From: an uncultured Trueperaceae bacterium
GTDB taxonomy: Bacteria > Deinococcota > Deinococci > Deinococcales > Trueperaceae
DNA length: 64,000 bases
Assembly: GCA_963727505.1 (NCBI GenBank)
Contig: CAVSGP010000014.1
Location: forward strand, 32,001 to 96,000
Direction: 5' to 3'
This document shows, piece by piece, positions 7,654-33,793 of the stretch. A program made the translations under genes and the position numbers. The number at the start of each line of letters is the position of its first letter. Positions within the stretch are counted from its first letter, which is position 1. A model generated the notes under the pieces. That model was not told the DNA's origin, did no database searches, and saw only the letters and a program-made list of their open reading frames with translations.

Positions 7654-9093
7654 CTACGGCTCTTCGGGTCCTCGCCCCAGCCGTTCCTGCAACAGCCGCC
7701 GCACCGCGTCGGGTCTGGCGGCGCCGCGGCTCTCCTTCATCACGCGCCCGAGCAGGGCGTTGATCGCCTTGGGGTTCTCCCGTGCGCTCTCGACCACGGC
7801 GGGGTTGGCCTCCATGATGCGCTCCACCAACGCGGCGAGTGCCCCCTCGTCGGTGATCTGCTTGAGCCCCCTGCGCTCGACGACGGTGTCGGGCTCCTCG
7901 CCGTCGATCACGTCGGGCAGGATCTCCTTGGCGATCTTGCCGGAGATGGCGCCCTCGTCGATGAGGCGGACCATCGCGGCCAGCCCCTCTGGCTTCAGCG
8001 GCACCTCGGCCAACCCCACACCGCGCTCGTTCAACAGGCCCGCCACGTCCCCGATCAGCCAGTTGGCGATGCGTTGAGCGGCCCCGTCGGGCGCGCGCTC
8101 GTAGGCCGCCGTCGCAGCGTCGAAGAACGCGGAGGTCGGGACGTCGAAGGCGATGAGCTCCGCGTCCTCGGCGCGCACCCCGAGGGCCAGGTAGCGTTCG
8201 CGCTTGGCCTGCGGCAGCTCGGGCATGGATGCGTGGATCTCCTCGAGCCATGCGCGGTCGAGCGTCAGCGGCGGCAGGTCGGGCTCGGCCATGTAGCGGT
8301 AGTCGGCCGACTCCTCCTTGCTCCTCAGAAGGTAGGTCTTCTGGCCGCCCTCGTTCCAGCCGCGCGTCTCCTGCGCCACGGTGCGCCCGTCGTCGAGCAG
8401 ACGCTGCTGGCGCTTGATCTCGAACTCCAGCGCCGACGCCACGCTCTTGAAGGAGTTGAGGTTCTTGACCTCGACCTTGGTGCCGAAGCTGCCGTCGGCG
8501 TTGCGGAGCGACACGTTGACGTCGGCCCGCATCTTCCCCTGCTCGGGGCTGGCGTCGGACACCCCGAGGGCGCGGGCGACCGCCTGCACATGGGTGAGGA
8601 AGGCGCGTGCCTCCTCCGGGGTACGCAGGTCGGGCTCGCTCACCATCTCGATGAGCGGCGCGCCGGCGCGGTTGAGGTCGACCAGGCTGTGGTCGGCGTA
8701 AGCGGGGTGGACCAGTCGGCCGGCGTCCTCCTCGACGTGACAGCGGGTGATGCCGATGCGCCGCCCGTTCTCCAGCTCCACCCAACCGTGCTCGCCGACG
8801 GGACGGTCGAACTGGCTTATCTGGTAGTTCTTGGGCGCGTCCGGGTAGAAGTAGTGCTTGCGGTGGAACTGCGTGAGCTCGGGGACCCGGCATCGCAGTG
8901 CCAGGCTGAAGCGGACCGCCTTCAGAATGGCGTCCTCGTTCGTCACGGGCAGGCTTCCCGGCAGCCCGAGGCAGACCGGGCAGGTGTTGACGTTGGGCTC
9001 CAGCCCGAAGCTGTCGGCCGAGCAGCCGCAGAACATCTTGCTCTTCGTGCGGATGGCGAGGTGGATCTCCAGACCGATGACGGGCTCGGGCAC
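7654..9093 (-). CDS. gatB: Asp/Glu-tRNA amidotransferase subunit B
   Basis: IGLEIH, CPVCLGLPGSLP, RKHYFYPDAPKNYQISQ, EEDAG, VEVKNLNS and DYRY motifs. Confidence 0.97.
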   Translation of the reverse strand: MPEPVIGLEIHLAIRTKSKMFCGCSADSFGLEPNVNTCPVCLGLPGSLPVTNEDAILKAVRFSLALRCRVPELTQFHRKHYFYPDAPKNYQISQFDRPVGEHGWVELENGRRIGITRCHVEEDAGRLVHPAYADHSLVDLNRAGAPLIEMVSEPDLRTPEEARAFLTHVQAVARALGVSDASPEQGKMRADVNVSLRNADGSFGTKVEVKNLNSFKSVASALEFEIKRQQRLLDDGRTVAQETRGWNEGGQKTYLLRSKEESADYRYMAEPDLPPLTLDRAWLEEIHASMPELPQAKRERYLALGVRAEDAELIAFDVPTSAFFDAATAAYERAPDGAAQRIANWLIGDVAGLLNERGVGLAEVPLKPEGLAAMVRLIDEGAISGKIAKEILPDVIDGEEPDTVVERRGLKQITDEGALAALVERIMEANPAVVESARENPKAINALLGRVMKESRGAARPDAVRRLLQERLGRGPEEP

Positions 9094-19378: not shown

Positions 19379-19756
19379 TTAACCGACCTCGGCGATCGCC
19401 TCGATCTCGATGCGCACGTCCTTGGGCAGGCGCGCCACCTGGACGGCGCTGCGCGCCGGCGGCTCGGCGGTGAAGTAGCTGCCGTAGACCTCGTTGACGG
19501 CCGCGAAGTCGTTCATGTCGGCCAGGAAGCAGGTGCACTTGACGGCCCGCTCCAGGCTCGATCCGCCCGCCTCCAGCACCGCTTTGACGTTCTCCATCAC
19601 CTGGCGGGTCTGCTCGCGGATATCGCCTTCGACCAGCGTTCCGTCGGGCGTGAGCGGGATCTGGCCGGCGGTGAACAGCAGGTCGCCCACCCGAACCGCC
19701 TGCGAGTAGGGGCCCACGGCGGCCGGGGCGGCGTCGGTCTTCACGATGCGTCTCAT
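19379..19756 (-). CDS. ridA: RidA family enamine/imine deaminase
   Basis: APAAVGPYSQA, NEVYGSYF, PARSAVQVARLP and IEIEAIA motifs. Confidence 0.92.
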   Translation of the reverse strand: MRRIVKTDAAPAAVGPYSQAVRVGDLLFTAGQIPLTPDGTLVEGDIREQTRQVMENVKAVLEAGGSSLERAVKCTCFLADMNDFAAVNEVYGSYFTAEPPARSAVQVARLPKDVRIEIEAIAEVG

Positions 19757-19806
19757 GGCCACCAGCCTAGCAGGGGCAGGACGCCCGCCCACGGCGGCCG
19801 CGAGCG

Positions 19807-20790
19807 CTAGCCACGCCAGAGGCTGAAGAGCAGGAACAACAGCAGCAGGTAGAGCGAGCCCAGGATCCAGATGCGATAGGGGTACCAGGGGTGCTTGCGC
19901 AGCTTCCCGAGCGGCCCGTTGGCGGGGAACTCGTCCTCGATGTGGCGGATGCCGCTCATGGTGTCGCTGATGTCGACCGACTCGGAGCTGCCCGCCTCGT
20001 CGGGGAGCGCGTAGCGCTTGGGCCGTGGCTCGACCTGGCGGATCTCGACCACCACCGCGGTGACGTTGTCGGGCGCGCCGCGGTCGTTGGATTCGGCGAT
20101 GAGTCGGCGCGCCGCCACCTCCGGCTCGGAGTCGGTGACGATCTGACGCAGCATCGTCTCGGACAGCAGCATGCTGACCCCGTCACTCAGTAGCAGGATA
20201 CGGTCGCCGGCCCGGACGTCGAAGTGGAGCACGTCGAGGCGGAAGCTGGCGGTGGCGCCGAGCGCGTTGGTGATGACGTTGCGCCAGCGGTGGTGGCGCG
20301 CCTCGTCGGCGGTGAGAAGCCCCTGCCGGACGCGGTCGGCGACCCAGCTGTGGTCGGCGGTGAGCTGGCGGATCTCGCCGGCACGGATCAGGTAGGCGCG
20401 GGAATCGCCGACATGGCCGATCAGGCCGACCTGGTCGTCGAGGTACACGGCGGTGAGGGTGGTTCCCATGCCGCGCACCTCGGGATGCTCGGCGGCATAG
20501 TCGTAGACCTCGAAGTTGGCCGTCTGCGCGGCCTTGGCCAGCGCTACCGGCGGCAGCAGGCGGGTGCGCTCGAGCTCGCGCCGCAACACCTCGACCGCCT
20601 TGCGGCTGGCGATCTCCCCGGCCCGGTGTCCGCCCATGCCGTCGGCGACGATCGCGAGGTAGCCCATGCCGGGCACGCGCCCGACGTAGAAGCTGTCCTG
20701 GTTGACCTGTCGGACGCGTCCTTCCTCGGACTGGCCGGCCCCCACGATCCGCGTGTCGGAAGGCGGGGTCGAGGGCTTGGGCGGTGCCAT
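19807..20790 (-). CDS. PP2C-type Ser/Thr phosphatase with C-terminal membrane anchor
   Basis: RQVNQD, ADGMGGH, GMGTT, HVGDSRAY, SDG and DNVT motifs; hydrophobic C-terminus. Confidence 0.92.
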   Translation of the reverse strand: MAPPKPSTPPSDTRIVGAGQSEEGRVRQVNQDSFYVGRVPGMGYLAIVADGMGGHRAGEIASRKAVEVLRRELERTRLLPPVALAKAAQTANFEVYDYAAEHPEVRGMGTTLTAVYLDDQVGLIGHVGDSRAYLIRAGEIRQLTADHSWVADRVRQGLLTADEARHHRWRNVITNALGATASFRLDVLHFDVRAGDRILLLSDGVSMLLSETMLRQIVTDSEPEVAARRLIAESNDRGAPDNVTAVVVEIRQVEPRPKRYALPDEAGSSESVDISDTMSGIRHIEDEFPANGPLGKLRKHPWYPYRIWILGSLYLLLLFLLFSLWRG

Positions 20791-20897
20791 GGCTGTCCAT
20801 TCTAGCCGCCCGTGGTGGTGGCGGCACGATGAAACAACGCACTCGAAGGCCGTGCGGGACGTACCTCCTGCGAGATGCCTCTGGTATGCTCGCCGGC

Positions 20898-22397
20898 ATG
20901 ACGAGCGCCTGGGAGTTGGCCCGCGAGGTGCGCGCGGGCAGGCGGAGTGCAGCGCGCGTCGTGGAGGACGCGCTCCGGCGTGCCGATGCGGCGGCGCCGT
21001 TGAACGCCTTGCTGACCGTTGCGGCCGACCGTGCCCGCGAACGGGCGCGTGCGCTGGATGAGGCTGTGGCACGGGGCGAGGACCCCGGCCCGCTGGCGGG
21101 CGTGCCGGTGGTGGTGAAGGACAACCTCTGCCTCGAGGGCGTACGCACCACCGCCGGCTCGCTCAGCCTGGAGACGTTCGTGCCTCCCTACAGCGCTACC
21201 GCCGTGGCCCGCTTGGAGGACGCGGGTGCGATCGTCATCGCCAAGGCCAACCTCGACGAGTTCGGGATGGGCTCGAGCAACGAGAACTCCGCCTTCGGTC
21301 CGGTCCGCAACCCGTGGGATCCGGAGCGCGTTCCCGGCGGCTCGTCGGGCGGCTCGGCGGCCGCCGTAGCGGCGGGCGTGGTGCCGCTGGCGCTCGGCAC
21401 CGATACCGGCGGCTCGGTGCGGCTCCCTGCTGCCTTCTGCGGCGTGCTGGGCTTCAAGCCTACCTACGGCCGCGTCTCCCGCTACGGGCTCATCGCCTAC
21501 GCCAGCTCACTCGACCAGGTCGGCGTGTTGACGCGCAGCAGCCGCGACGCGGCGCTGGCGCTGGCGGTCATGGCGGGTGCCGATCCGCACGACGGTACCA
21601 GCCTGGAGGCGGACGCGGACGCCCTGCGGACCCTGGCGGGGCTGGGGCCGGAAGCGCCCGAGCCCGAGGGCGCCAAAGGGCACGAGGCCCTGCGCGGACT
21701 GCGCGTGGCGGTGGTGCGTGAGCTGGCCGGCGAGGGCAACTCCCCCGGCGTGCTGCAGGGCCTCGCACGCAGCGTCGAGGCGCTGCGCGCGCTGGGCGCC
21801 GAGGTGATGGAGGTGAGCGCGCCCAGTGTGCGTCACGCCGTCGCCGCCTACTACCTGGTCGCCACCGCCGAGGCGAGCAGCAACCTCGCCCGCTACGACG
21901 GCATGATCTACAGCACCCGCGAGGGCGAGGACGCCGACGGCCAGGAGGCGGTGATGCGGCGCTCCCGCGGCCGCACCCTCGGCCGGGAGGTGCGTCGCCG
22001 CGTGCTGATGGGCAGCTTCGCGCTGTCCGCCGGCTACTACGACGCCTACTACGGCAAGGCCCTGAAGGTGCGGCGCGTCATCGCCGACGACCTCGCACGC
22101 GCCTTCGAGAGCGCCGACGTGTTGCTCACGCCGACCGCGCCGGGGGCGGCCTACCGCCTGGGCGAGAAGCTCGACGATCCCCTGGCGATGTACGTGGGTG
22201 ACGTCTGCACCTGTCTGGCGAACCTCTCCGGGATGCCCGCCGTGAGCGTGCCGGCCGGGCGCACTGAGGAGGGCCTGCCGACCGGCGTGCAGCTGATGGC
22301 GCCCGCGCTGCAGGAGGCGCGCCTCCTCGAGGTGGCGTCCGCCCTGGAGGCGCGCGCGGGCGAGGCGTTCGCGCCGCTGGCGCCGACGCAGGCCTGA
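20898..22397 (+). CDS. gatA: Asp/Glu-tRNA amidotransferase subunit A
   Basis: KDN, GGSSGGS, GTDTGGSVR, EASSNLARYDG and YYDAYY motifs. Confidence 0.95.
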   Translation: MTSAWELAREVRAGRRSAARVVEDALRRADAAAPLNALLTVAADRARERARALDEAVARGEDPGPLAGVPVVVKDNLCLEGVRTTAGSLSLETFVPPYSATAVARLEDAGAIVIAKANLDEFGMGSSNENSAFGPVRNPWDPERVPGGSSGGSAAAVAAGVVPLALGTDTGGSVRLPAAFCGVLGFKPTYGRVSRYGLIAYASSLDQVGVLTRSSRDAALALAVMAGADPHDGTSLEADADALRTLAGLGPEAPEPEGAKGHEALRGLRVAVVRELAGEGNSPGVLQGLARSVEALRALGAEVMEVSAPSVRHAVAAYYLVATAEASSNLARYDGMIYSTREGEDADGQEAVMRRSRGRTLGREVRRRVLMGSFALSAGYYDAYYGKALKVRRVIADDLARAFESADVLLTPTAPGAAYRLGEKLDDPLAMYVGDVCTCLANLSGMPAVSVPAGRTEEGLPTGVQLMAPALQEARLLEVASALEARAGEAFAPLAPTQA

Positions 22398-22421: not shown

Positions 22422-23579
22422 TCAGGCTTCGAAGAGCTCCCTCGGGAAGTCGGTAAGGACCTCGCACCCGTCTTCGGTCACGCGGATGGTCTCGCTGCAG
22501 CCGACACCCCCCTTGCCGGGGATCTGCACCCACGGCAGCAGGTGGAAGGTCATGTTGCGCTGCAGCGGACGGCCCTCGCCGGGCTTCATGCTCAGGATCT
22601 GGCCCTCGCCCCAGTCGGGGGGCACCGCGATGCCGATGGAGTAGGCCGTGCGGGACGCCTGGTTCTCGCCGAAACCGGCGTCGGCGAGCAGCGCGCGGCA
22701 CACGCGGTCGACCTCGCCGGCGGGCACCCCGGGGCGGATGGTGCGCGTCGCGGCGTCGACCGCCTGCAGCACCACCTCGAAGGCGTGCTTCATCTCCGGG
22801 TCTGCGCGCCCGACGACGACGGTGCGCATCATCGCGGCGTGGTAGCGGTTGCGGCAGCCACCGATCTCCAGGAAGACGGTGTCGCGATCCCGGATGGTGC
22901 GCCCCTTCCAGGTGGCGTGGCCGATGGCGCCGCGCTCGCCGGAGGCGATGAAGGGCACGATCGAGGGCCAGTGGCTGCCGCCGCGGATGAGCGCAGCCAT
23001 CAGGTCGGCGGCCACCTCATCCTCGGTGCGGCCGCTCGCCACCGCCTCGACACCCGCCTGCATGCCCACGGCCGCGGCCGCCGCGGCTCGCCGGATCTGC
23101 TCGACCTCCAGGTCGGACTTGACCAGCCGGAGCTGCTCGATGAGCCCCGACACGTCCGTGAACGCGGTGGTGGGCAGCGAGTACAGCAGGCGCTGCTGCT
23201 GCGAGGCGGTGAAGAACCAGCAGTCCTGCTCGTAGCCGACGCGCGAGTTCGCCAGGCCGTTCTCGAGCAGGCGCGCGGCCAGCGACGCCATGATGTCGTC
23301 GCTGTCGTGGTAGCCGTAATTGAGCTCGATCCAGGTGCCGTCCTCGACCCCGCTGGTCTCCAACAGGCGCGAGAAGGTGAAGGGCTCGCCCTCGAGCGGC
23401 ACGACCAACCCCTGGAACCAGTAGTGGCCGGGCGAGTCGAAGCCGGTGAGGTAGGCGATGTTCTCGGGGGTGGTGGTCAGCATGGCGTCGAGCTCTTGCT
23501 CGGCCATCACGCCGCGCAGGGCGTCCAGCCGTCGCTGGTACTCCTGCATGGGAAAGACGAGGTCTTCGCGCTGCCGCAT
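22422..23579 (-). CDS. eutD: Ectoine hydrolase (M24 fold, EutD/DoeA type)
   Basis: EIGGCRNRYH, RTAYSIG..PPDWGE and NMTFH match the EutD-type metal-free M24 signature; adjacent to ehu/eut genes. Confidence 0.8.
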   Translation of the reverse strand: MRQREDLVFPMQEYQRRLDALRGVMAEQELDAMLTTTPENIAYLTGFDSPGHYWFQGLVVPLEGEPFTFSRLLETSGVEDGTWIELNYGYHDSDDIMASLAARLLENGLANSRVGYEQDCWFFTASQQQRLLYSLPTTAFTDVSGLIEQLRLVKSDLEVEQIRRAAAAAAVGMQAGVEAVASGRTEDEVAADLMAALIRGGSHWPSIVPFIASGERGAIGHATWKGRTIRDRDTVFLEIGGCRNRYHAAMMRTVVVGRADPEMKHAFEVVLQAVDAATRTIRPGVPAGEVDRVCRALLADAGFGENQASRTAYSIGIAVPPDWGEGQILSMKPGEGRPLQRNMTFHLLPWVQIPGKGGVGCSETIRVTEDGCEVLTDFPRELFEA

Positions 23580-23605
23580 CCATCGATCCCTTCCGCCCGC
23601 TACCG

Positions 23606-23666
23606 GAGGTTGACAACCTCTCGGTGGGACGCGTACACTCACGTTGTCGACAACTTGTATACAAGT
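23606..23666. promoter_or_regulatory. Putative GntR/FadR operators in the divergent eutD-gntR spacer
   Basis: Inverted repeat GAGGTTGACAACCTC (23606-23620) and perfect palindromes GTTGTCGACAAC (23643-23654) and ACTTGTATACAAGT (23653-23666). Confidence 0.65.
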
Positions 23667-23773
23667 ACGCCGCTACCCGCATTCTAGGTCCGATGTTCGC
23701 CACGGGTCAACTATCGACGAGCCCGAAGGGTACGGTGCCGGCCACCGATCGGAAGGAAGGAAGCTGCAAGTCT

Positions 23774-24460
23774 ATGCATGCCCGCGACACCGCCGACCGC
23801 CCTCGCGGCGTCGAACTCATCTACCGCGAGCTGCGCGAGAGGATCTGCCTGTTGCGCTACCCTCCGGGAGCGATGCTGAGCGAGAATCCGCTCGCCGAGG
23901 AGTTCGGCGTCAGCCGCACCCCGATCCGCCAGGCTCTGCAGCGCCTGGAGTTCGAGGGGCTGGTGATGAGCCGTCACGGGGTGGGCACCATGGTCACCAC
24001 GGTCGACCTGCAGTATCTGCGAGAGGTCTACGCGCTGCGCATCAAGCTGATCGATCTGATCGGCGAGATCCCGCCGGCGCGCATCACCGAGGGCGACCTC
24101 ACGCTGCTGGCGGACCTCGTGATGCAGGCGCGCAAGTTGCGCGGGCAGCGCGAGCCCGAAGCGTTGGCGCGCATCTACCACCACTTCAACGAGGAGCTCT
24201 CGCGCGCCATCGGCAACCAACCTCTCCGGGAGATCGCCGACCGGCTGTTCTGGCAGACGACGCGCGTGTGGCTCCAACTCCTGCCGGAGATGACCTGGGA
24301 GGACGAGGTGGACTACATCGTCGACGAGATCGAGAGCGTGCTGCAGGCCCTCAAGCGCGAGGACATGGAGGGCGTCGCGGCGGTGCGGCGCAAGCACATG
24401 GTGCTGTGCCTGAGTCGCATCAACAGCTATCTGGAAGGACCCATCCTGGCCCTGCCGTGA
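23774..24460 (+). CDS. GntR family (FadR/FCD) transcriptional regulator
   Basis: LSENPLAEEFGVSRTPIRQALQRL winged HTH followed by a helical FCD-like domain; no aminotransferase domain. Confidence 0.93.
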   Translation: MHARDTADRPRGVELIYRELRERICLLRYPPGAMLSENPLAEEFGVSRTPIRQALQRLEFEGLVMSRHGVGTMVTTVDLQYLREVYALRIKLIDLIGEIPPARITEGDLTLLADLVMQARKLRGQREPEALARIYHHFNEELSRAIGNQPLREIADRLFWQTTRVWLQLLPEMTWEDEVDYIVDEIESVLQALKREDMEGVAAVRRKHMVLCLSRINSYLEGPILALP

Positions 24461-24505
24461 GGCGGGCCGTGCACGACGAAGGAATCTTGGTTTGGAGGTC
24501 AAGGC

Positions 24506-25720
24506 ATGACGAAACGGCGTGAACCGGCGCTAGAAACGCTCGCCGTCTGGGCGGGCGAGGATCGACCCACGATGCAGGGAGCGACGCAGGTGCCTGTGGT
24601 GCACAGCGTGTCGTTCGGCTACGACGATCTCGACGAGTGGCGCGACGTCGCGCTGGGCAGGCGCGAGGGCCACATCTACGGTCGCAACACCAACCCCACG
24701 GTGCAGGTGTTCGAGGAGAAGATCCGCCAGCTCGAGGGGGGCGAGGCGGCGACCAGCTTCGCCACCGGCATGGCGGCCATCAGCAACACCCTGTTCACGC
24801 TGCTGGAGCCCGGTCAGCGAGTGGTGTCGGTGAAGGACACCTACGGTGGGACCAACAAGATCTTCACGGAGTTCTTGCCGCGCTTCGGCATCGACGTGCA
24901 GCTCTGCGAAACCACCGATTTCGATGCCATCGAGGCGGAGGTGGCCAAGGGTTGCCAGGTGCTCTACCTGGAGACCCCGACCAACCCGACGTGCAAGATC
25001 ATGGACATCCGCCGGCTGGCCGACAAGGCCCACCAGGTCGGCGCCACGGTGGTGGTGGACAACACCTTCGCCACCCCCATCAACCAGAACCCCCTCACGC
25101 TGGGAGCGGATCTGGTCATACACAGCGCTACGAAGTACCTGGGCGGGCACGCCGACGCCCTCGGCGGCGCCCTCATCGGGCCCAAGGAGACGGTGGAACG
25201 CGTCTACCACTTCCGTGAGATCAACGGCGCCACGTTGCATCCCGAGGCCGCCTACCTGTTGCTGCGCGGCATGAAGACACTGGCGCTGCGCATCGCCCGC
25301 CAGAACGAGAGTGCCCTCGCCATCGCCCGCCACCTCGCCGAGCATCCATCGGTCGCGGCCGTGTTCTACCCGGGTCTGGAGAGCCACCCCAACCACGAGG
25401 TGGCGGCGCGCCAGATGCGCGGGTTCGGCGGCATGCTGTCGTTCCAGATCCACGGTGGCTTCGATGCCGTGAAGACCTTGCTGCCCCGTCTGCGGTTCGC
25501 GCACCGCGCGGCCAACCTGGGCGCGGTCGAGACCGTGGTGGCGCCGCCGGCGACCGGCAGCCACGTCGAGCTGACCACCGAGGAGCGCGCTGCCATGGGC
25601 ATCCCCGAGAGCCTGGTGCGCTACTCGGTAGGGATCGAGAACGTCGATGATCTCATCGCCGATCTGGATGAGGCGCTCGCCTACACCGCCGAGCGGCACG
25701 GCATCGGGGAGGCCGTATGA
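24506..25720 (+). CDS. Cystathionine gamma-synthase/trans-sulfuration family PLP enzyme
   Basis: YGRNTNPT, FATGMAAI, ETPTNP, DNTFATP, HSATKYLGGH (PLP Lys) and RYSVGIE motifs. Confidence 0.9.
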   Translation: MTKRREPALETLAVWAGEDRPTMQGATQVPVVHSVSFGYDDLDEWRDVALGRREGHIYGRNTNPTVQVFEEKIRQLEGGEAATSFATGMAAISNTLFTLLEPGQRVVSVKDTYGGTNKIFTEFLPRFGIDVQLCETTDFDAIEAEVAKGCQVLYLETPTNPTCKIMDIRRLADKAHQVGATVVVDNTFATPINQNPLTLGADLVIHSATKYLGGHADALGGALIGPKETVERVYHFREINGATLHPEAAYLLLRGMKTLALRIARQNESALAIARHLAEHPSVAAVFYPGLESHPNHEVAARQMRGFGGMLSFQIHGGFDAVKTLLPRLRFAHRAANLGAVETVVAPPATGSHVELTTEERAAMGIPESLVRYSVGIENVDDLIADLDEALAYTAERHGIGEAV

Positions 25721-26748
25721 CCGTCACCCGCCTGGCCCTCATCGGGTTCGGCACCGTCGGGCAGGGCTTCGCGCAGATCCTCGCCGAGCGCGGTGACGTG
25801 CTGGCCGCCAAGCACGGACTCGAGCTCTCGATCACCGCCGTCAGCGACTTCAACCGGGGCAGCGTCTACCGGGCCGGCGGCTTCGATCCCGAGGCCCTGC
25901 TCGGCGCCGCCGACGCGCTCGAGACCCTGGATGCCGATACCAAGGGCTGGGACGCGCTCACCACCATCCGCGAGTCCGGCGCCGACGCCGTCGCCGAGCT
26001 CAGCTTCACCGACCTGAAGACCGGCGAGCCCGCGCTCACCCACGTGCGGGAGGCGCTGTCGCGCGGGATGGACGTGGTGACCACCAACAAGGGGCCCATC
26101 GCGCTGCGTTTCGCCGAGCTGCGCCGTCTCGGCGCCGAGCACGGCGCGGGCCTCGGCGTGGAGGGCACGGTGATGAGCGGCACGCCCACCCTGGCGCTGG
26201 GCGCGGGGCTGCTGGCCGGGGCCGGCGTGCGTCGCATCCAGGGCATCCTGAACGGCACCACGAATTTCATCCTCACGCGCATGGAGGCCGGCCTCGACTT
26301 CGACAACGCACTGGCCGAGGCGCAGCGCGAGGGGTACGCCGAGGCCGATCCCAGCGGCGACGTGGACGGCATCGACGCCGCCGGGAAGGTGGTGATCCTC
26401 GCCAACCTGGTCATGGACGCGCCGCTGGCGATGGACGACGTGGAGCGCCAGGGCATCCGTTCCATCACGCCGGCCGATATCGAGGCCGCCGCGGCGGCAG
26501 GCGAACGCTGGAAACTGCTCGGCAGCGTCGAGCGTGCCGCCGACGGCAGCGTCACGGGGCGCGTGGGGCCGCAGCGCGTGCCGCTGTCGCATCCGCTGGC
26601 GGGTATCGGCGGCCCGACCAACGCCTGCACCTTCACGACCGATCTGCTCGACGACGTCACCATCGTCGGCCCCGGGGCCGGCCGTCTCGCGACCGGCTAC
26701 GCGCTCGTCGAGGACCTCATCGCGCTCCGCGGTGGCGGGAGGCGCTGA
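25717..26748 (+). CDS. hom: Homoserine dehydrogenase (short form, no ACT domain)
   Basis: GFGTVG, TNKGP, ILNGTTNFIL, GYAEADPSGDVDG and GPGAG motifs; 343 aa. Confidence 0.92.
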   Translation: MTVTRLALIGFGTVGQGFAQILAERGDVLAAKHGLELSITAVSDFNRGSVYRAGGFDPEALLGAADALETLDADTKGWDALTTIRESGADAVAELSFTDLKTGEPALTHVREALSRGMDVVTTNKGPIALRFAELRRLGAEHGAGLGVEGTVMSGTPTLALGAGLLAGAGVRRIQGILNGTTNFILTRMEAGLDFDNALAEAQREGYAEADPSGDVDGIDAAGKVVILANLVMDAPLAMDDVERQGIRSITPADIEAAAAAGERWKLLGSVERAADGSVTGRVGPQRVPLSHPLAGIGGPTNACTFTTDLLDDVTIVGPGAGRLATGYALVEDLIALRGGGRR

Positions 26749-26751
26749 GTC

Positions 26752-28167
26752 ATGGAGATGCTGCTGGCCGGGGACTGGGTGGCGCGCGACGCGGTCATCG
26801 AGATCCTGGACCCAGACGACGAGAGCGTCATCGACACCGTGCCGCAGGCCACCACCGACGACATGGAGCGCGCGTTGGCCGCAGCCGAGCGCGGCGCGGA
26901 ACTCGCCCGCGCGCTCCCGACGCACCGCCGCATGGCGGTGCTGATGGAGGCGTCGCAGCGCCTCGAGCGCAACCAGGAGACGTTCGCCCGCCTGATCGCG
27001 CGCGAGGGGATCAAGACCATCCGGGAGGCGCGCAAGGAGGCGAACCGTGCGGTGGACACGCTGCGCCTCAGTGCCGAGGAAGCGCGCAGGCTGCACGGGG
27101 AGACGCTGGCCTTCGATCAGCGTCCGGGCAGCGAGGGGCGCTTCGGTTACTACGTTCCGGAGCCCGTGGGTATCGTGGCGGCCATCACGCCCTTCAACGA
27201 TCCGCTGAACCTGGTCGCGCACAAGGTCGGTCCGGCCCTCGCCGCGGGCAACGCCGTCGTGCTCAAGCCCGATTCGAAGACGCCGCTCAGCGCGCTCAAG
27301 CTCGGCGAGCTGCTGCTCGAGAGCGGCCTGCCGCCGGACGTGTTGCAGGTCATCACGGGCCGCGGCAGCGTGGTCGGCGACGCGCTGGTGCGCGACCCGC
27401 GGGTGCGCGTGGTGTCGTTCACGGGGGGCAAGGAGACGGGCGAGGCGATCGTGCGCGCGGGCGGGCTCAAGCGCTACAGCATGGAACTCGGTAGCAACGC
27501 GCCCACCATCGTCATGGACGACGCCGATCTCGATGCCGCGCTCCCTGCCATCGTGTCGGGAGCCTTCTGGGCCGCTGGCCAGAACTGCCTACACGTGCAA
27601 CGCCTGTTGGTCCACGAAGATGTCTACGACGAGGTCCGCGAGCGCATGGTGGCGGGCGCGCAGGCGGTGCGTACCGGCCCGAAGCTCGAGGAGGCCACCG
27701 ACATGGGCCCCGTCATCGACACGGGCAACGTGGAGCGGATCGCGAGTATGGTAGAAGAGGCACGGACCGCTGGAGCCCGCCTCCTCACGGGAGGTGGTTA
27801 CGAAGGCACGCACTTCGAGCCCACGTTGCTCGAGGGTGTTACGGCTGACAGCCGCCTCGCCCGCGATGAGGTGTACGGTCCGGTCACGATCCTCCAACGG
27901 GTGCGTGACCTGGACGAAGCGGTCCGCGTGGCGAACGACGTTGACTACGGCCTTCAGGCCGCGGTGTTCACCCGTGACCTCGACACCGCGCATCGCGCGG
28001 TCTCCGCACTCCACTACGGGGGCGTGATGGTGAACGACAGCACCGACTACCGCATCGACGCCATGCCTTTCGGCGGGGTGAAAGGTTCCGGGCTTGGCAG
28101 GGAAGGCGTGCGATTCGCCGTCCAGGAGATGACCGAGCTGAAGCTCGCGAGCTTCGCATTGCGCTGA
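26752..28167 (+). CDS. NAD(P)-dependent aldehyde dehydrogenase
   Basis: ITPFNDP, FTGG, ELGSN, GQNC (catalytic Cys) and [14 protein letters not shown] motifs. Confidence 0.93.
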
Positions 28168-28199
28168 CGCCCGTTACGCGAACATATGAGGAGGGACCC

Positions 28200-29039
28200 G
28201 TGGCAGTGACGACCGGAAGCGAGGCATCCCAACACGACGAGGCCGCCAGGGCCGCGGCCCTGGCGAATGCGGAGCCGATGGTGCGTTTCGAGAAGGTGCG
28301 TAAGTCTTTCGGCTCGCTCACGGTGCTTCACGATCTCGATTTCACCGTGCGCTCGGGGGAGAAGGTGGCGATCGTCGGCCCCAGCGGCTCCGGTAAGACC
28401 ACCATCCTCCGGGTGCTGATGACACTGGTGAAGCCCGACGGCGGCAAGGTGTTCGTCGGTGGCGAGCCGCTCTGGCACCGCGAGGTCGACGGCAAGGTGC
28501 TGCCCGCTCCCGAGAGCCAGCTCAGGCAGGTGCGTAACCGCATCGGCATGGTGTTCCAGCACTTCAACCTGTTCCCCAACATGAGCGTGCTGCGCAACGT
28601 CACCGAGGCGCCCATCCACGTCAAGGGGGTGGCCCGCGCCGACGCCGAGAAGCGCGGCAAGGAGCTGCTCGACATGGTGGGTCTGGCCGACAAGCACAGC
28701 GCGTTCCCGTCGCAGCTCTCCGGCGGCCAGAAGCAGCGCGTCGCCATCGCCAGGGCGCTGGCCATGGACCCCGACCTGATGCTGTTCGACGAGGTCACCT
28801 CCGCGCTCGACCCGGAGCTGGTGGGCGAGGTGCTGGGCATCCTCCGTCAACTCGCGCACGAGACCAACATGACGATGCTGATCGTGACCCACGAGATGGG
28901 GTTCGCACGCGACGTCTCCGACCGGGTCGTGTTCTTCGACGCCGGGCAGGTCGCGGAGGAGGGGCCGCCGTCCAAGATCTTCAGCAACCCCGAGAACCCC
29001 AGGACGCAGAGTTTCCTGAAAGCAGTCCTGGAGCATTGA
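28200..29039 (+). CDS. ehuA: Ectoine/hydroxyectoine ABC transporter ATPase
   Basis: [27 protein letters not shown] and THEMGFA motifs; operon context. Confidence 0.88.
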
Positions 29040-29294
29040 CCCCGCGTGATCGGCTGCCGCGCTCGGTGCGTGGCCGCCTGGAGATGCCGGGGAACGCCCC
29101 GGCCACGGGAAGGATGTGAAGCGATGTCCGAGGAGCCGCCGTCAGGAGCCGAGGTTCCGTGCACGTGCGCGGAGCGCGGCCGCCCGACCGGCACCGGCCT
29201 GGCGCCCCCAGGCGCCTGCCGGATACGCCGCGTGGCGCGCACGTGGCCGCGTGCCCGCCCGAAGAACACGACGTTCGAATCGCAAGGAGGAACC

Positions 29295-30158
29295 ATGGCC
29301 AACCGTACGCTGAAAGCCCTGACACTGACGTTGTTCGCTGCCCTGATCGGCGCGCTGGCATTCGCCCAGGGCGACCTGATGCAGCAGATCCAACAGCGGG
29401 GATACATCCGCGTCGCGACCGCCAACGAGATCCCGTACGGCTACATCGACCAGAAGGGTGACGCCAAGGGGATCGCCCCCGACGTTGCCACGGCCGTGCT
29501 CAAGAGCATGGGGATCACCGACATCCAGTGGATCGTCACCGAGTTCGGCTCGCTGATCCCCGGCCTCAAGGCCAACCGCTTCGACATGGCGGCCGCCAGC
29601 CAAGCGATCCTTCCGGCGCGCTGCCAGCAGGTGATCTACTCGAAGCCCAACTCCAGCTACGGTGAAGGCCTCATGGTGGCCGCTGGCAACCCGAAGAACA
29701 TCCACGGCTACCAGGACTTCGTGAACAACTCGAGCCTCAAGATGGGGATCGTGTCCGGCGCCGACCAGCTCGACTTCGCGCATGCCATGAACATCCCCGA
29801 TAGCCAGCTCGTGAGCATCCCGTCCAACACCGATGCGCTCTCGGCCGTCACGACCGGCCGCATCGACGCCTACGCCGGCACGGGCCTGACGGTCGACCGT
29901 CTCGCCGCCAAGTCCGACAAGGTCCAGCCCGCCGACCCGTTCAACGACCCCGTCGTCAACGGCAAGGCTGTTCGCAGCTGGGGCGGCTTCACGTTCAACA
30001 TGAACAACACCGCCTTCCGTGACGCCTACAACAAGGCGCTCGCAGCGTTCCAGCAGACGCCCGAGTACGAGAAGATCCTGACGAGCTACGGCTTGAGCAA
30101 GGGCGACGTTCAGCAGGCCCTCGCCAAGACGACCCAGGAGCTGTGCAGCGGACAGTAA
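29295..30158 (+). CDS. ehuB: Ectoine/hydroxyectoine ABC transporter substrate-binding protein
   Basis: Signal peptide; ANEIPYGY, EFGSLIPGL..RFD, ILPARCQQV and GNPKNIHGY; C-terminal ELC; AGGAGG SD. Confidence 0.88.
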   Translation: MANRTLKALTLTLFAALIGALAFAQGDLMQQIQQRGYIRVATANEIPYGYIDQKGDAKGIAPDVATAVLKSMGITDIQWIVTEFGSLIPGLKANRFDMAAASQAILPARCQQVIYSKPNSSYGEGLMVAAGNPKNIHGYQDFVNNSSLKMGIVSGADQLDFAHAMNIPDSQLVSIPSNTDALSAVTTGRIDAYAGTGLTVDRLAAKSDKVQPADPFNDPVVNGKAVRSWGGFTFNMNNTAFRDAYNKALAAFQQTPEYEKILTSYGLSKGDVQQALAKTTQELCSGQ

Positions 30159-30171
30159 CCGCTGCTGATCC

Positions 30172-30203
30172 GGCGGATGGGAGCCCTGAGGCTCCCATCC
30201 GCC
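30172..30203 (+). terminator. 14-bp stem-loop after ehuB (attenuating or stabilising hairpin)
   Basis: GGCGGATGGGAGCC-ctga-GGCTCCCATCCGCC followed by a pyrimidine-rich tract. Confidence 0.7.
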
Positions 30204-30363
30204 CCCCTATCTTTCTTCAGGCCGTGACGCCCATCCGCCCCGCCCGGCGCCTCCTCGCGAGGCGCGTCGTCGTGTCGGAGCCCCGCCAGATCTGGCGGGG
30301 GTTCCCGGCGACCTGGCGAGGTCGAAGGCTCACGCGCTACCTCTGGGAAGGGGGAGGACGGGC

Positions 30364-31032
30364 ATGGACCTGAGCACCCTGTTGCCGCCGTTGCTCAAAG
30401 GCGCGCGGGTCACGGCCGAACTGGCACTGATGTCGACGGTTCTGGGAGGTGTGATGGCCTTCCTGACCGGGATCGGCAAGCTGTCGCGCTTCTGGCCGGC
30501 GCGCATCCTGTCGATCATCTATGTGGAAGTCTTTCGCGGCACCAGTCTTCTGGTGCAGATGTTCTGGATCTATTACGCGTTGCCGCTGCTGGGCGTGAGC
30601 CTGGGCGCCACCCTGGCCGGCGTCCTGGCGCTCGGCCTCAACATCGGCGCCTACGGTGCCGAGGTCGTGCGTGGCGCCATCCTGTCCGTGCCTACGGGGC
30701 AGTACGAGGCCTCGGTGGCGCTCAACTTCACGCGCCGCCACACGCTCTGGAACGTGGTGCTTCCGCAGGCGCTGGTGGAGATGATGCCGCCGTTCGGCAA
30801 CCTGGTCGTGCAGAACCTCAAGGATACCGCCCTGGTATCGCTGATCACCCTGAGCGACCTCACCTTCCGCGCCCAGAACATCCGCAACCTGACGTTGGAG
30901 ACGGTGCCCATCTACAGTCTCACGTTGCTCCTGTACTTCGCCATGGCGCTGGTGCTGATGTTCGGCATGCGCTGGCTCGAGCGCGTCATCGCGAACCGCG
31001 TCGGCGTGACCGCTGCGAGGGCACGCTCATGA
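30364..31032 (+). CDS. ehuC: Ectoine ABC transporter permease
   Basis: EVFRGTSLLVQMFW and GAYGAEVVRGAI motifs; polar amino-acid permease. Confidence 0.88.
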   Translation: MDLSTLLPPLLKGARVTAELALMSTVLGGVMAFLTGIGKLSRFWPARILSIIYVEVFRGTSLLVQMFWIYYALPLLGVSLGATLAGVLALGLNIGAYGAEVVRGAILSVPTGQYEASVALNFTRRHTLWNVVLPQALVEMMPPFGNLVVQNLKDTALVSLITLSDLTFRAQNIRNLTLETVPIYSLTLLLYFAMALVLMFGMRWLERVIANRVGVTAARARS

Positions 31033-31721
31033 TGTTCGGCATCCACTGGGACCTCAGTTCCAACTGGGCGTTCGCAGTGTCCATCATCCCCATCCTGCTG
31101 CGCGGCATGATCATCACCGTCGAGGCCACGGCGCTCGGCTTCCTGGTCGCGTTGCTGCTCGGCATGGTCTTCGCGTTGTTGCGGGCCGTTCCGCTCAAGA
31201 TCGTGTCCTGGCCGGTGGCCTTCATCATCGAGTTCGTGCGCGACACGCCGCTGCTGGTGCAGCTCTACTTCCTCTATTTCGTGCTGCCCAATTACGGCAT
31301 CGTGCTGCCGGCCTTCATGACCGGCGCCATCGCGCTGGGCGTGCAGTACAGCGCCTACACCTCGGAGGTGTACCGGGCCGGGCTCGAGGCCGTGCCTCGC
31401 GGGCAGTGGGAAGCGTCGCTGGCGCTCAACATGCCCACCTGGCTGGTGTACCGCGACGTGGTGGTGCCCCAGGCCGTCCCGCGCGTGATCCCTGCGCTCG
31501 GCAACTACCTGGTGTCGATGCTCAAGGACACACCTATCCTGTCGGCCGTGACGGTGCTGGAGATGCTGAACCTGGCGACCATCATCGGGGACCGTACCTT
31601 CCGCTACCTGGTCCCGCTGTCGATGGTGGGTGGCCTGTTCCTGCTCCTGACCATCTTCAGCTCCTGGCTGGTGCGGGTGCTCGAGCGGCGGATGCCCAAC
31701 GACGGCATCCCGCTGCGCTAG
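31029..31721 (+). CDS. ehuD: Ectoine ABC transporter permease
   Basis: EFVRDTPLLVQ, YTSEVYRAG and LGNYLVSMLKDTP motifs. Confidence 0.88.
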   Translation: MMFGIHWDLSSNWAFAVSIIPILLRGMIITVEATALGFLVALLLGMVFALLRAVPLKIVSWPVAFIIEFVRDTPLLVQLYFLYFVLPNYGIVLPAFMTGAIALGVQYSAYTSEVYRAGLEAVPRGQWEASLALNMPTWLVYRDVVVPQAVPRVIPALGNYLVSMLKDTPILSAVTVLEMLNLATIIGDRTFRYLVPLSMVGGLFLLLTIFSSWLVRVLERRMPNDGIPLR

Positions 31722-31730
31722 GCGCAAGGA

Positions 31731-32756
31731 GTGGACCGACCCACGCTCCGCGACGTCTACGTGGCCGCCCGCGCCATGGCGGGCGTGGTGCGGCGCACGC
31801 CGCTGGTCGAGAGCGCAGCGCTGGCGGGCGCGGCCGGCGGCCCCGTGCACCTGAAGCTGGAGAACCTCCAGCTCACCGGCGCCTTCAAGGCGCGCGGCGC
31901 CACCAACGCCCTGGCCGCGCTCTCCGCCGAGCAGCGCGAACGTGGCGTGATCGCCGTCTCCACCGGTAACCACGGGCGCGCCGTGGCCACGGCGGCGCAG
32001 CGGCTCGGCGTGAGCGCCACCGTGTGCGTATCGGGGCGCGTGCCCGAGGACAAGATCACCGCGTTGCGCGCCACGGGGTGCGAGCTCGTGATCGCCGGCG
32101 ACAGCCAGGATGACGCCGAGGTGGGCGCCCGGCAGCTCGTCGAGGAACGCGGCCTCACCCTGGTGCACCCCTTCGACGACCCCGCGGTCATCGCGGGACA
32201 GGGCACCATCGGCCTGGAGATCCTGGAGGAGCTGCCGGAGCTCAGGCGTGTCGTGGTTCCGCTGTCGGGAGGCGGCTTGATCGCGGGCGTGGCGCTCGCG
32301 ATCAAGTCGGCCGATCCCACGGTGCGCGTCGTCGGTGTCTCGATGGAGCGGGGCGCTGCCATGGCGCACAGCCTCCGGGCCGGACGTCCGGTGCCCACAC
32401 CCGAGGAGCCCACGCTGGCCGACAGCCTGCAGGGCGGTATCGGCGAGCACAACCGCTACACCCTGATGATGGTGGGCGAGTTGGTCGATGATGTCGTGCT
32501 GGTGAGCGAGGAGGCCATCGCGCGCGCCATGCGCTTCGGCTTCCTGCAGGAGCGGCAGGTGCTGGAGGGCGCCGCGGCCGTGGGCATCGCGGCGCTCCTG
32601 GAGGGCGCGCTGCCCGAGATGGAGGGGCCGACGGCGGTCGTGTGTTCGGGAGGGAACATCGACCCCGAGCGCTTCCTCGCGATCATCGGCGGCGACGCGG
32701 CAGCGGCCGAGGCAGGGGCGGCGCCGGCGGCATCCGGCGGAGAGGGGGCCTCGTGA
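31731..32756 (+). CDS. eutB: Hydroxyectoine utilisation dehydratase (threonine dehydratase family)
   Basis: KLENLQLTGAFKARGA, STGNHG, SGGGL, LADSLQGGIG and SGGNID motifs. Confidence 0.88.
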   Translation: MDRPTLRDVYVAARAMAGVVRRTPLVESAALAGAAGGPVHLKLENLQLTGAFKARGATNALAALSAEQRERGVIAVSTGNHGRAVATAAQRLGVSATVCVSGRVPEDKITALRATGCELVIAGDSQDDAEVGARQLVEERGLTLVHPFDDPAVIAGQGTIGLEILEELPELRRVVVPLSGGGLIAGVALAIKSADPTVRVVGVSMERGAAMAHSLRAGRPVPTPEEPTLADSLQGGIGEHNRYTLMMVGELVDDVVLVSEEAIARAMRFGFLQERQVLEGAAAVGIAALLEGALPEMEGPTAVVCSGGNIDPERFLAIIGGDAAAAEAGAAPAASGGEGAS

Positions 32757-33793
32757 GCGAGCCCGACCCGAACGAGCCCGACCCGAACGAGCCCGACCCG
32801 AACGAACCTGCCCGGAACGAGCACGCTCCCGTGCAGGTCCTTCGTGAGGACGCCATCCGGGCACGGGTCGGCCTGGACGCCGAGGGGCTCGAGGCGGTAC
32901 GCGAGGCGCTGCGGCGCCTGTCGGCGGGCGACGCCGTGCAGCCGCCGGTGATGCGCATCGACGTGCCCGAGCACCACGGCGAGGTGGACATCAAGGGCGC
33001 CTACATCCGGGGCCTGGACAGCTTCGCGGTGAAGATGTCTTCCGGCTTCTTCGACAACCCCAGGCGTGGCCTGCCGACGTCCAGCGGCCTGATGGTGCTC
33101 CTGGACGCCGAGACCGGCGTGCCACGTGCCGTGCTGCTCGACAACGGCTACCTCACCGACGTGCGCACGGCGCTCGCTGGTGCCGTGGCGGCCGACGCCC
33201 TGGCGCGCGCCGCCATCGACACGGTGGCGGTGCTGGGAGCGGGTGCGCAGGCGCGCTGGCAGCTCCGCGCCCTCATGCTGGTGCGCTCGCCCCGCCGAGC
33301 GCTGGTGTGGGCGCGCAGGCGCGCCGAGGCCGGACGCCTGGCCACGGAGATGACCGAGCAGCTCGGCATACCGGTGGAGGCGGTCGACGAGGCTGAACGG
33401 GCGGTGCGCGAGAGCGACCTCGTCGTGACCACCACGCCGGCCACGGCGCCGATCCTGGAGGCAGCCTGGTTGCGCGCGGGCGTGCATGTCACGGCCATGG
33501 GGTCGGACTCCGAGCACAAGCAGGAGCTCGAGCCCGCCGTGCTGGGTCGCGCCGACGTTGTTGTGAGCGACCGCCGTAGCCAGGGCCTGGCGATCGGCGA
33601 GTTGCGCTCCGCGAAGGCGGCGGGGGTCGACGTGAGCGAGGCGCGGGTCGCCGAGCTGGGGGAGGTGCTCGCCGGCACCCGCGACGGGCGCACCTCGGAG
33701 GACCAGATCACCGTCTGCGACCTCACGGGGACGGGTGTCCAGGACACCGCTATCGCGCGGCTGGCGGCGGCGCGGGCGGCGGCACGCGGTTAG
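32753..33793 (+). CDS. eutC: Cyclodeaminase-family ectoine utilisation protein
   Basis: GFFDNP..GLP, DNGYLTDVRTA, GAGAQA, GSDSEHKQE and DLTGTGVQD motifs; GTGA overlap with eutB. Confidence 0.88.
   Translation: MSEPDPNEPDPNEPDPNEPARNEHAPVQVLREDAIRARVGLDAEGLEAVREALRRLSAGDAVQPPVMRIDVPEHHGEVDIKGAYIRGLDSFAVKMSSGFFDNPRRGLPTSSGLMVLLDAETGVPRAVLLDNGYLTDVRTALAGAVAADALARAAIDTVAVLGAGAQARWQLRALMLVRSPRRALVWARRRAEAGRLATEMTEQLGIPVEAVDEAERAVRESDLVVTTTPATAPILEAAWLRAGVHVTAMGSDSEHKQELEPAVLGRADVVVSDRRSQGLAIGELRSAKAAGVDVSEARVAELGEVLAGTRDGRTSEDQITVCDLTGTGVQDTAIARLAAARAAARG
32759..32818 (+). repeat. In-frame 15-bp tandem repeat GAGCCCGACCCGAAC x3 plus a degenerate unit (EPDPN)
   Basis: Three identical units at 32759, 32774 and 32789 at the eutC N-terminus. 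Confidence 0.93.

Follow-up and report, generated by a model that had tools for sequence, protein, structure and literature searches.

An ectoine catabolism cluster with a possible lower pathway through homoserine in an uncultured Trueperaceae bacterium

How might ectoine be degraded to aspartate by a gene cluster that codes for the import and opening of this molecule, but for neither the deacetylase EutE/DoeB nor the diaminobutyrate transaminase DoeD/Atf of the known pathways? The question is raised by a cluster at positions 22422-33793 of a 64,000-nucleotide stretch of about 70% G+C (hereafter the window) from an uncultured Trueperaceae bacterium (contig CAVSGP010000014.1, positions 32001-96000, assembly GCA_963727505.1, our genome G000). 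Besides recognizable ectoine genes, the cluster holds genes for a pyridoxal phosphate (PLP) enzyme of the Cys/Met-metabolism family, a homoserine dehydrogenase (Hom) and an aldehyde dehydrogenase (ALDH). We read it, with a confidence that goes slightly beyond an even chance, as a GntR-controlled ectoine/hydroxyectoine regulon with a non-canonical lower pathway that runs through homoserine to aspartate.

Few microbial osmolytes are more abundant than ectoine, and microbial communities of saline habitats and soils draw carbon and nitrogen from its turnover. To our knowledge, experimental proof of ectoine catabolism is confined to a few Proteobacteria. The canonical clusters are ehuABCD-eutABCDE in Sinorhizobium meliloti, eutABCDE-asnC-ssd-atf in Ruegeria pomeroyi and doeABXCD in Halomonas elongata. 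Common to these and to the cluster described here are the Ehu importer, an M24 ectoine hydrolase, EutB, EutC and a final ALDH leading to aspartate. Unlike the canonical clusters, the present one is without EutE/DoeB, DoeD/Atf, EutA, AsnC and EnuR, has a regulator of the GntR/FCD type and a Cys/Met-family PLP enzyme together with Hom inserted, and its EutD falls below the cut-offs of both available DoeA models.

Gene content and control region of the cluster

The cluster consists of long open reading frames (ORFs) with a high G+C content at third codon positions, and these match exactly the genes listed in a preceding sequence-only reading of the window, in which eutD is divergent from a run of gntR, the PLP gene, hom, the ALDH gene, ehuABCD, eutB and eutC (Table 1). 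The tight spacing that had been pointed out in the middle of this run can likewise be read directly from the DNA, i.e. hom overlaps the end of the PLP gene by ATGA, and 3 nt separate the hom stop codon from the ALDH gene. Upstream of both junctions there is a Shine-Dalgarno-like GGAGG. A gamma-lyase-type gene, hom and an ALDH gene that are adjacent and coupled is also the layout found for the canavanine gamma-lyase pathway, to which we return below.

Family membership supports the view that the cluster truly serves the uptake and catabolism of ectoine and hydroxyectoine: EhuA-D, EutB and EutC score above curated cut-offs, and the model nearest to EutD is DoeA_2. The four EhuABCD importer subunits are mutually adjacent, and each of them lies above its equivalog cut-off. 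With the older models, EutB is narrowly short of TIGR02991 (399 < 413) and EutC is under TIGR02992 (405 < 472). The EutC model match begins at residue 63 of the longest ORF, and the apparent eutB/eutC overlap is probably a longest-ORF artefact, with the true eutC start near 32.8 kb. For the eutD-like protein, aligned over its full length with the NCBIfam models, the best match is the ectoine hydrolase DoeA_2 (NF038259), with 410 bits against a cut-off of 575, and the DoeA/EutD model (TIGR02993) gives 222 bits against 613, i.e. both scores are below their cut-offs. The genomic context (Ehu, EutB and EutC) nevertheless supports hydrolysis of ectoine to N-acetyl-2,4-diaminobutyrate (N-acetyl-DABA) as the predicted role of this protein. 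No ACT domain was matched by Pfam in the hom product, and the ALDH reached no NCBIfam equivalog cut-off. Among the Pfam and NCBIfam annotations of the window ORFs, we found no gene for a deacetylase, a class-III aminotransferase, EutA, AsnC or a MocR-type regulator inside or adjoining the cluster.

Reading of the intergenic DNA places the likely starts of eutD and gntR at ATG 23579 and ATG 23774, respectively, and the two genes are therefore separated by a divergent control region of 194 bp. Two sigma-70-like sites occur in it, at 23610-23639 (+) and 23710-23681 (-), and these are the sole two in 14.1 kb, where 0.5 were expected. Between them lie two palindromes, GTTGTCGACAAC (23643-23654) and ACTTGTATACAAGT (23653-23666), which were spotted by reading the sequence and counted by script, the automated repeat search of the control region having returned nothing. 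The core, TTGTATACAA, has a single occurrence in the 3.26-Mb genome. It is found at the same position in all five same-genus loci and in nine out of ten close metagenome loci (the tenth starts inside eutD), and it is also kept in L131-L135 and L147, in which EutD is 56-65% identical. The palindromes are likely to form one putative GntR operator serving both divergent units.

Table 1. Features of the cluster, followed by other genes of the window (bit scores are followed by the model cut-off where one applies)
Feature	Position in window	Strand	Evidence or remark
eutD-like ectoine hydrolase, M24/creatinase fold	22422..23579; longest ORF to 23642	-	Pfam Peptidase_M24 and Creatinase_N
Divergent control region	23580..23773	both	2 promoter-like sites and 2 palindromes
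GntR-family regulator, FCD subfamily	23774..24460; longest ORF from 23624	+	Pfam GntR 74 bits, FCD 35 bits
Cys/Met-metabolism PLP enzyme, PRK08249 clade	24506..25720	+	PF01053 442 bits; NF006097 688 > 600
hom, ACT-less homoserine dehydrogenase, 'module' clade, 343 aa	25717..26748	+	PF00742 197 bits; PRK06270 393 > 373
NAD(P)-dependent ALDH	26752..28167	+	PF00171 520 bits
ehuA, ATPase of ectoine/hydroxyectoine ABC importer	28200..29039	+	TIGR03005 394 > 345
ehuB, substrate-binding protein	29046..30158	+	TIGR02995 283 > 191
Hairpin, 14-bp perfect stem, loop CTGA	30172..30203	+	Just past ehuB, in the 205-nt gap before ehuC
ehuC, permease	30364..31032	+	TIGR03004 287 > 197
ehuD, permease	31029..31721	+	TIGR03003 313 > 205
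eutB, threonine-dehydratase-like PLP enzyme, hydroxyectoine branch	31731..32756	+	NF005680 439 > 413
eutC, ornithine-cyclodeaminase/mu-crystallin family	32642..33793	+	NF006141 449 > 408
EF-G paralogue	2-1399	+	Best solved match 'elongation factor G homolog' 1wdt/2dy1, ahead of standard EF-G entries
GatB	7654-9093	-	About 12 kb from gatA
RidA-type enamine/imine deaminase	19379-19792	-	TIGR00004 181 > 106; just upstream of gatA
PP2C phosphatase	19807-21072	-	Just upstream of gatA
GatA ('amidase')	20784-22397	+	TIGR00132 538 > 481; convergent to eutD
NAD-specific glutamate dehydrogenase, large bacterial type, 1624 aa	47661-52535	+	

Missing lower-pathway genes and conservation of the combination

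The absence of EutE/DoeB and DoeD/Atf from the cluster, as already noted from the sequence alone, holds above model cut-offs for the whole genome, which is 97.4% complete at 3.26 Mb. For EutE/DoeB (TIGR02994), nothing was found above the cut-off of 402.7 bits. The best match (C5:120488-121678) was rejected as a deacetylase on account of its low score, 117 bits, and its unrelated surroundings beside a deoxyhypusine-synthase-like gene. No DABA transaminase (DoeD/Atf/EctB) was found in the genome either, the best scores being 226 bits against 552 for TIGR02407 and 268 against 671 for NF005393. The top genes in these searches are a GabT (TIGR00700, 529 > 507) and a PRK06917 enzyme. The genome searches for EutA and EctC gave no match; as the control genomes gave none either, these two results do not establish absence. 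What the genome does contain is an M20 amidohydrolase gene that is unlinked to the cluster (G000:C2:47730-49175), with 304 bits to DoeB2 (NF038260, cut-off 550) and a higher score, 417 bits against a cut-off of 500, to CpsA. As M20 homologues occur in 102 out of 121 genomes of the family whatever ectoine genes are present, a phyletic test gives no signal. In the region that contains the M20 gene (L196, G000:C2:44823-49175), a diaminopropionate ammonia-lyase-like gene (PRK08206, 269.5 bits vs 276) is situated near it, and a DapA-like gene (C2:51167-52072) follows about 2 kb beyond the M20 gene. A further observation concerns the aminotransferase-like genes, where G000:C10:20014-26600 and G000:C3:19453-26017 share the order amidase, polar amino-acid ABC transporter, PRK06917 aminotransferase and GabT, which points either to a duplication or to the double assembly of one region.

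The neighbors of the PLP gene were analyzed in 80 loci obtained by a scan with the PLP protein, using one genome per species, and these loci were screened with the window proteins together with a Bacillota EutD, an M20 protein and an EutE-like protein (tblastn, E at most 1e-8, coverage at least 45%). Out of the 44 loci with a PLP protein at least 60% identical, 22 had eutD, 18 hom, 17 ALDH, 20 an M20 amidohydrolase and one an EutE-like gene, as opposed to none of any of these in the 36 loci with a PLP protein less than 50% identical. The ALDH gene adjoins hom in 17 of the 18 hom-bearing loci. A deacetylase candidate is present in 19 of the 22 loci with both eutD and the PLP gene, namely an M20 related to DoeB2 in 18 (e.g. 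235 bits to NF038260 in L042) and an EutE-like gene in one. No class-III aminotransferase was identified in ten eutD-bearing loci annotated with Pfam.

Several operon configurations are found among these loci. In Bacillota, the typical order is PucR, EutB, EutD, EutC, PLP, M20, Hom and ALDH; Salipaludibacillus has PucR, EutD, PLP, Hom and ALDH with a divergent M20 and sodium symporter. A metagenome-assembled genome of Desulforhopalus shows M20, a TRAP transporter, a MocR-type regulator, EutA, EutD, AsnC and PLP. In the Denitromonas record (L053), EutB, EutC, a fused EutD-EutD, an EutE-like gene and the PLP gene occur in that order, with a 2-oxoacid-dehydrogenase E3-like gene directly past the PLP gene; the fused double EutD is 751 aa long (L053:6644-8899). 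Stand-alone units of gntR, PLP, hom and ALDH genes, accompanied by an amino-acid permease or an aspartase, were found in three Bacillota loci (L024, L045 and L054). One locus, L033, is titled Pseudomonas sp. ISL-84, and has a Bacillota-type operon; both trees place its PLP and Hom proteins inside Bacillaceae, and the record may be mislabelled.

No WhiB gene is present in the genome, the phylum sample is made up of one order with five families, and the best solved match of the EF-G paralogue in the window, 1wdt, is a Thermus protein, all of which suggests a member of the Deinococcota as opposed to an actinobacterium. Within the phylum, PLP orthologues at least 68% identical are present in 46 out of the 301 genomes sampled, and 44 of these, counting G000, belong to the family of the window. 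Eleven of the 18 family PLP loci fetched hold eutD beside gntR and the PLP gene, five of them with hom and ALDH in addition and six with neither. One more locus has PLP, hom and ALDH with no eutD in view, and the remaining six are without any ectoine-cluster gene in view, one of them at a contig end. In two genomes, G015 and G242, the EutD that accompanies the PLP-hom-ALDH unit is of the canonical type: that of G015 is a true TIGR02993 member (684 > 613), and that of G242 is 77% identical to it. The full combination recurs in all five same-genus genomes fetched, and metagenome contigs found with EutD carry the same unit at 79-94% identity (L121-L130) or 63-65% identity (L131, L132, L134 and L135). 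It had been suggested as a check that eutD, the PLP gene, hom and ALDH be sought together in other genomes; given their recurrence across the genus, metagenomes and other phyla, the combination is therefore no chance arrangement.

The PLP enzyme is a full-length member of the Cys_Met_Meta_PP family (442 bits) to which aminotransferase families match weakly, and the clade into which it falls is a tight one (62-72% identity). Among solved structures, methionine gamma-lyases (MGL) come nearest, at 335 bits, and the enzyme stays below the cut-off of the methionine gamma-lyase model TIGR01328 (402 bits vs 550). Active-site positions were assigned by way of the residue numbering of MGL. The PLP-binding Lys, the catalytic Tyr and the carboxylate-binding Arg are all kept, and the MGL-specific Cys (motif YGCT) is replaced by Gly (motif YGGT). 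From its sequence, the enzyme looks like an intact gamma-lyase. A Ser described as conserved in this subclass of Cys/Met PLP enzymes, in the accessible part of PMC9307983, corresponds to Asn337 here (motif AANLG, window positions around 25514-25516). Asn occupies this position in 48 out of 59 sequences of the clade defined by at least 60% identity, including every member that has hom in its neighborhood. The 11 others, which are basal or exceptional, have Ser, as do all 38 homologues at greater distance, among them the paralogues in G000 itself. The PLP enzymes of the stand-alone units nest within the Bacillota ectoine-cluster branch. Clade members without eutD occur in heterogeneous contexts with no common theme, and the clade is therefore not used only for ectoine.

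The Hom encoded in the cluster had been thought of as a spare catabolic copy, which is not so here, as it contains the sole Hom domain in the genome. A Hom is present in 30 out of 30 relatives searched, with exactly one in every genome of the genus, and in the five same-genus genomes fetched this single Hom is the in-cluster gene. In other genera, hom was seen directly upstream of thrC in seven loci, six of them within the family and one in family f4. When the corresponding region of our genome (G000:C9:437291-439980) is compared with L111, the thrC neighbors are syntenic, the native hom is missing and about 245 bp are left in its slot. In the Hom tree (49 rows, two long-branch rows left out), there are two clades, each with a support of 100/99. 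One comprises the native Homs of the order, including the second Hom that four family genomes carry beside a module Hom. The other, here called the module clade, comprises 13 in-cluster Homs of the family and 18 module Homs of Bacillota. The module Hom thus represents a separate paralogue, which moves together with the PLP gene. Judging from these comparisons, the native hom was lost afterwards in this genus, in G209 (which has a module Hom only) and in the genus of G015. With the native gene lost, the module Hom would also have to run biosynthetically and could not be fully repressed. ThrC, ThrB and MetX are all present in the genome, MetX beside a MetY-like gene, as are two further Cys/Met-family paralogues.

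A possible route through homoserine and its alternatives

The route that we propose would start with the import of ectoine and hydroxyectoine by EhuABCD, as suggested by family membership, followed by ring opening by the EutD-like hydrolase to N-acetyl-DABA, most likely the N-alpha isomer. A deacetylase, with the unlinked M20 enzyme as candidate, would then free DABA. By analogy with known gamma-lyases, the PLP enzyme would strip the gamma-amino group from DABA by gamma-elimination via a vinylglycine ketimine, and addition of water would give homoserine. Hom, predicted to be co-translated with it, would convert homoserine to aspartate semialdehyde, and the ALDH would take the latter to aspartate. 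The PLP enzyme and Hom together would in this way stand in place of the DABA transaminase DoeD/Atf. Intermediates derived from hydroxyectoine would enter the same route via EutB and EutC. In this genus, which no longer has the native hom upstream of thrC, the module Hom also appears to have assumed the biosynthetic role.

The enzyme logic of these last steps has an exact biochemical precedent in canavanine catabolism, where a gamma-lyase acting via a vinylglycine ketimine and water gives homoserine, which an NAD-specific Hom and an ALDH convert to aspartate, all steps having been reconstituted with purified enzymes according to the accessible part of PMC9533460. The succession homoserine, aspartate semialdehyde and aspartate that had been proposed from the sequence alone is thereby supported. 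As described there (PMC9533460, accessible part), canavanine catabolism with its gamma-lyase, NAD-specific Hom, ALDH and aspartase has the same logic and gene neighborhood as the present cluster. None of the 80 best PLP loci is from Pseudomonas or Rhizobium, save the Pseudomonas-labelled L033, which groups with Bacillaceae. A difference is that the presumed substrate here carries nitrogen at the gamma position, not oxygen as in canavanine. Another parallel is the catabolic, ACT-less and NAD-only Hom of Arthrobacter nicotinovorans (bioRxiv 10.1101/2021.02.09.430557). By description, both it and the Hom encoded here are short and ACT-less, and the oxidative direction has been proposed for the Arthrobacter enzyme. 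In contrast to our case, that enzyme was reported without reductive activity, which the sole Hom of G000 cannot afford.

The alpha-amino group, through which Cys/Met-family enzymes bind their substrates, is not available for this in N-alpha-acetyl-DABA. Most likely, as far as can be told from sequence and gene context, the PLP enzyme replaces the transaminase only and acts on free DABA. This substrate is favored because most named-genome loci with eutD and the PLP gene (19/22) also have a deacetylase candidate, because Denitromonas has EutD, EutE-like and PLP genes in a row, because relatives pair the PLP-hom-ALDH unit with a canonical EutD, and because the DoeA_2-type enzyme of Methylotuvimicrobium gave the N-alpha isomer (PMC7192451, accessible part). 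Homoserine is the likely intermediate, because of the PLP-hom ATGA overlap, the ALDH gene only 3 nt further on, the stand-alone units and the reconstituted logic of the canavanine enzymes. In clusters without hom and ALDH, homoserine would be handled by the native Hom, or else 2-oxobutyrate would be formed.

Several findings weigh against the homoserine route as a whole or in part. No M20 or EutE-like gene accompanies the PLP gene in any of the 18 family loci, and in two cases that are without the PLP gene and hom (L133 and L145/146), eutD is followed by an EutE-like gene scoring 324 and 294 bits with TIGR02994, a pattern that fits a PLP enzyme which also replaces the deacetylase. Six of the 11 family loci that combine eutD with the PLP gene are without hom and ALDH, which makes homoserine less than certain as the product, and 2-oxobutyrate may be formed instead; other members of the PLP clade occur in unrelated contexts. 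The sole Hom of a genome that also has ThrB, ThrC and MetX could be explained partly by biosynthesis. The action of the PLP enzyme on DABA is argued from sequence and analogy, and we found no published proposal of a DABA gamma-lyase or of a gamma-lyase route for ectoine in the literature searched.

The alternative put forward in the sequence-only reading is that EutD produces N-gamma-acetyl-DABA, an amide isostere of O-acetylhomoserine, from which the PLP enzyme directly expels acetamide to give homoserine, EutE and DoeD both being replaced. Besides the deacetylase-free family loci and the reciprocal pattern in L133 and L145/146, it can draw on the fact that EutD lies under the cut-offs of both DoeA models and may thus differ in regiochemistry. 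This proposal was weakened by the comparisons, and we now regard it as unlikely. TIGR02993-type EutD enzymes make N-alpha-acetyl-DABA, and in G015 and G242 it is this canonical type that is combined with the PLP-hom-ALDH unit. An amide nitrogen is, as a matter of general chemistry, a poorer leaving group than ammonium, and the 'amidase' next to eutD is GatA and no acetamidase. Furthermore, 18 of the 22 eutD-bearing named-genome loci have an M20 and one has an EutE-like candidate, and the Methylotuvimicrobium enzyme of DoeA_2 type gave the N-alpha product (PMC7192451, accessible part). It is quite unlikely, in our estimate, that the enzyme instead behaves like MGL, turning DABA or a related compound into 2-oxobutyrate and ammonia, with Hom and ALDH handling semialdehyde of another source or being only loosely attached. 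MGLs are indeed the closest solved relatives, six family loci and several Bacillota loci have eutD and the PLP gene without hom or ALDH, the E3-like gene of L053 comes straight after the PLP gene, and the canavanine lyase also yields some 2-oxobutyrate (PMC9533460, accessible part). Against this stand the translational coupling of the PLP gene and hom in the present cluster, the dedicated second Hom clade that accompanies the PLP gene in two phyla, the stand-alone PLP-hom-ALDH units, in which Hom would be useless, and the lack of the MGL-specific Cys.

A transaminase function of the PLP enzyme, by which DABA would become aspartate semialdehyde for the ALDH while Hom merely diverted semialdehyde to Thr and Met, would agree with the label 'atf' given to the gene at this position in the accessible part of PMC13188858, and with hom as the sole biosynthetic Hom in the genome. 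We consider it very unlikely, as the protein is a Cys_Met_Meta_PP member over its full length with weak matches to aminotransferase families, as enzymes of the Cys/Met family are established to bind the alpha-amino group and perform gamma or beta chemistry, and as a native Hom has been retained alongside the module Hom in relatives. That the PLP gene and hom are ordinary Met/Thr biosynthesis genes which ended up inside an ectoine operon by chance is highly improbable. The only Hom of the genome does lie in the cluster, with ThrB, ThrC and MetX elsewhere. However, the PLP gene is associated with eutD in 22 of 44 loci of its clade as opposed to 0 of 36 others, MetX, a MetY-like gene and two more family paralogues are found elsewhere in the genome, Hom groups with the module and not the native clade, and the ALDH has no biosynthetic role.

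Returning to the homoserine route, the gene set that it requires turned out not to be new, as it was already in print in 2026. Putative Gram-positive ectoine clusters of the type 'pucR-eutBCD-atf, abgB-thrA-adh' are described in the accessible part of PMC13188858 (2026), where the gene set is reported for Bacillota, Actinomycetota and Thermodesulfobacteriota. In that part of the report, the functions of abgB, thrA and adh are left open and no homoserine route is proposed. The enzyme set described there is the same as here, with the PLP gene at the position of 'atf', followed by Hom (thrA) and ALDH (adh), and identities to those Gram-positive clusters are 62-72% for PLP, 42-49% for Hom and 50-57% for ALDH. 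The 'atf' of the accessible text would then be the Cys/Met-family PLP enzyme, the two being equated by position. Compared with the clusters in that text, the present one has GntR instead of PucR, no M20 (abgB), another type of EutD in divergent orientation, and belongs to another phylum. What is new here is the quantified association between the PLP clade and eutD, the module Hom clade together with the loss of native hom, the Ser-to-Asn signature, the operator, and the correction by which the transaminase, not the deacetylase, would be replaced.

Another informative comparison is with the doeBDAC cluster of Methylotuvimicrobium alcaliphilum, from which the NCBIfam models DoeA_2 and DoeB2 presumably derive. 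The EutD described here is closest to DoeA_2 (410 bits), and for M20-type N2-acetyl-DABA deacetylases there is a curated family. Unlike our cluster, that of Methylotuvimicrobium keeps the DoeD transaminase and DoeC and is without a PLP lyase or Hom; the M20 of G000, on the other hand, is unlinked and scores 304 bits vs 550. It is for the DoeA_2-type enzyme of this doeBDAC cluster that N-alpha-acetyl-DABA was obtained as product (PMC7192451, accessible part).

As a tentative extension, to which we give somewhat less than an even chance, the Asn-bearing branch of PRK08249 would be a new L-2,4-diaminobutyrate gamma-ammonia-lyase that gives homoserine. Together with Hom and ALDH it would form a transaminase-free lower ectoine pathway common to halophilic Bacillota, the family of the window, sulfate reducers and others, and the catabolic Hom would have displaced the native Hom in this genus and two sister genera. 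If true, this would be a second lower ectoine pathway with a new PLP reaction on diaminobutyrate, which would account for the unexplained 'thrA' and 'adh' and correct the 'atf' label in the clusters of 2026. The PRK08249 clade with Asn at the Ser position and the module Hom clade would serve as markers for ectoine consumers in metagenomes. It would also show plainly how a catabolic paralogue can take the place of a housekeeping enzyme in amino-acid biosynthesis, with Thr and Met synthesis depending on a gene inside an osmolyte-catabolic operon under a GntR repressor.

Flanking genes and other features of the window

The cluster is flanked by genes for RidA, PP2C and GatA on one side and by rnpA, yidC and jag on the other. 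As an 'amidase' gene adjacent to eutD, gatA was considered as a source of acetamidase or deacetylase activity for the pathway, and this was ruled out, as the product is GatA by its model score and the gene is transcribed convergently to eutD (Table 1). The adjacency of gatA and eutD is kept within the genus and in close metagenome contigs, and looks like plain synteny with a housekeeping neighbor. The activity of a RidA-type protein would suit a pathway with PLP lyases and dehydratases; no link of this gene to the cluster was found.

A search of the whole window with Rfam gave no match. The hairpin past ehuB has a folding energy of -33.4 kcal/mol with a z-score of -4.3, none of 200 shuffled sequences being as stable, and it is followed by a weakly T-rich tail. 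It may act as a transcript stabiliser or attenuator within the operon.

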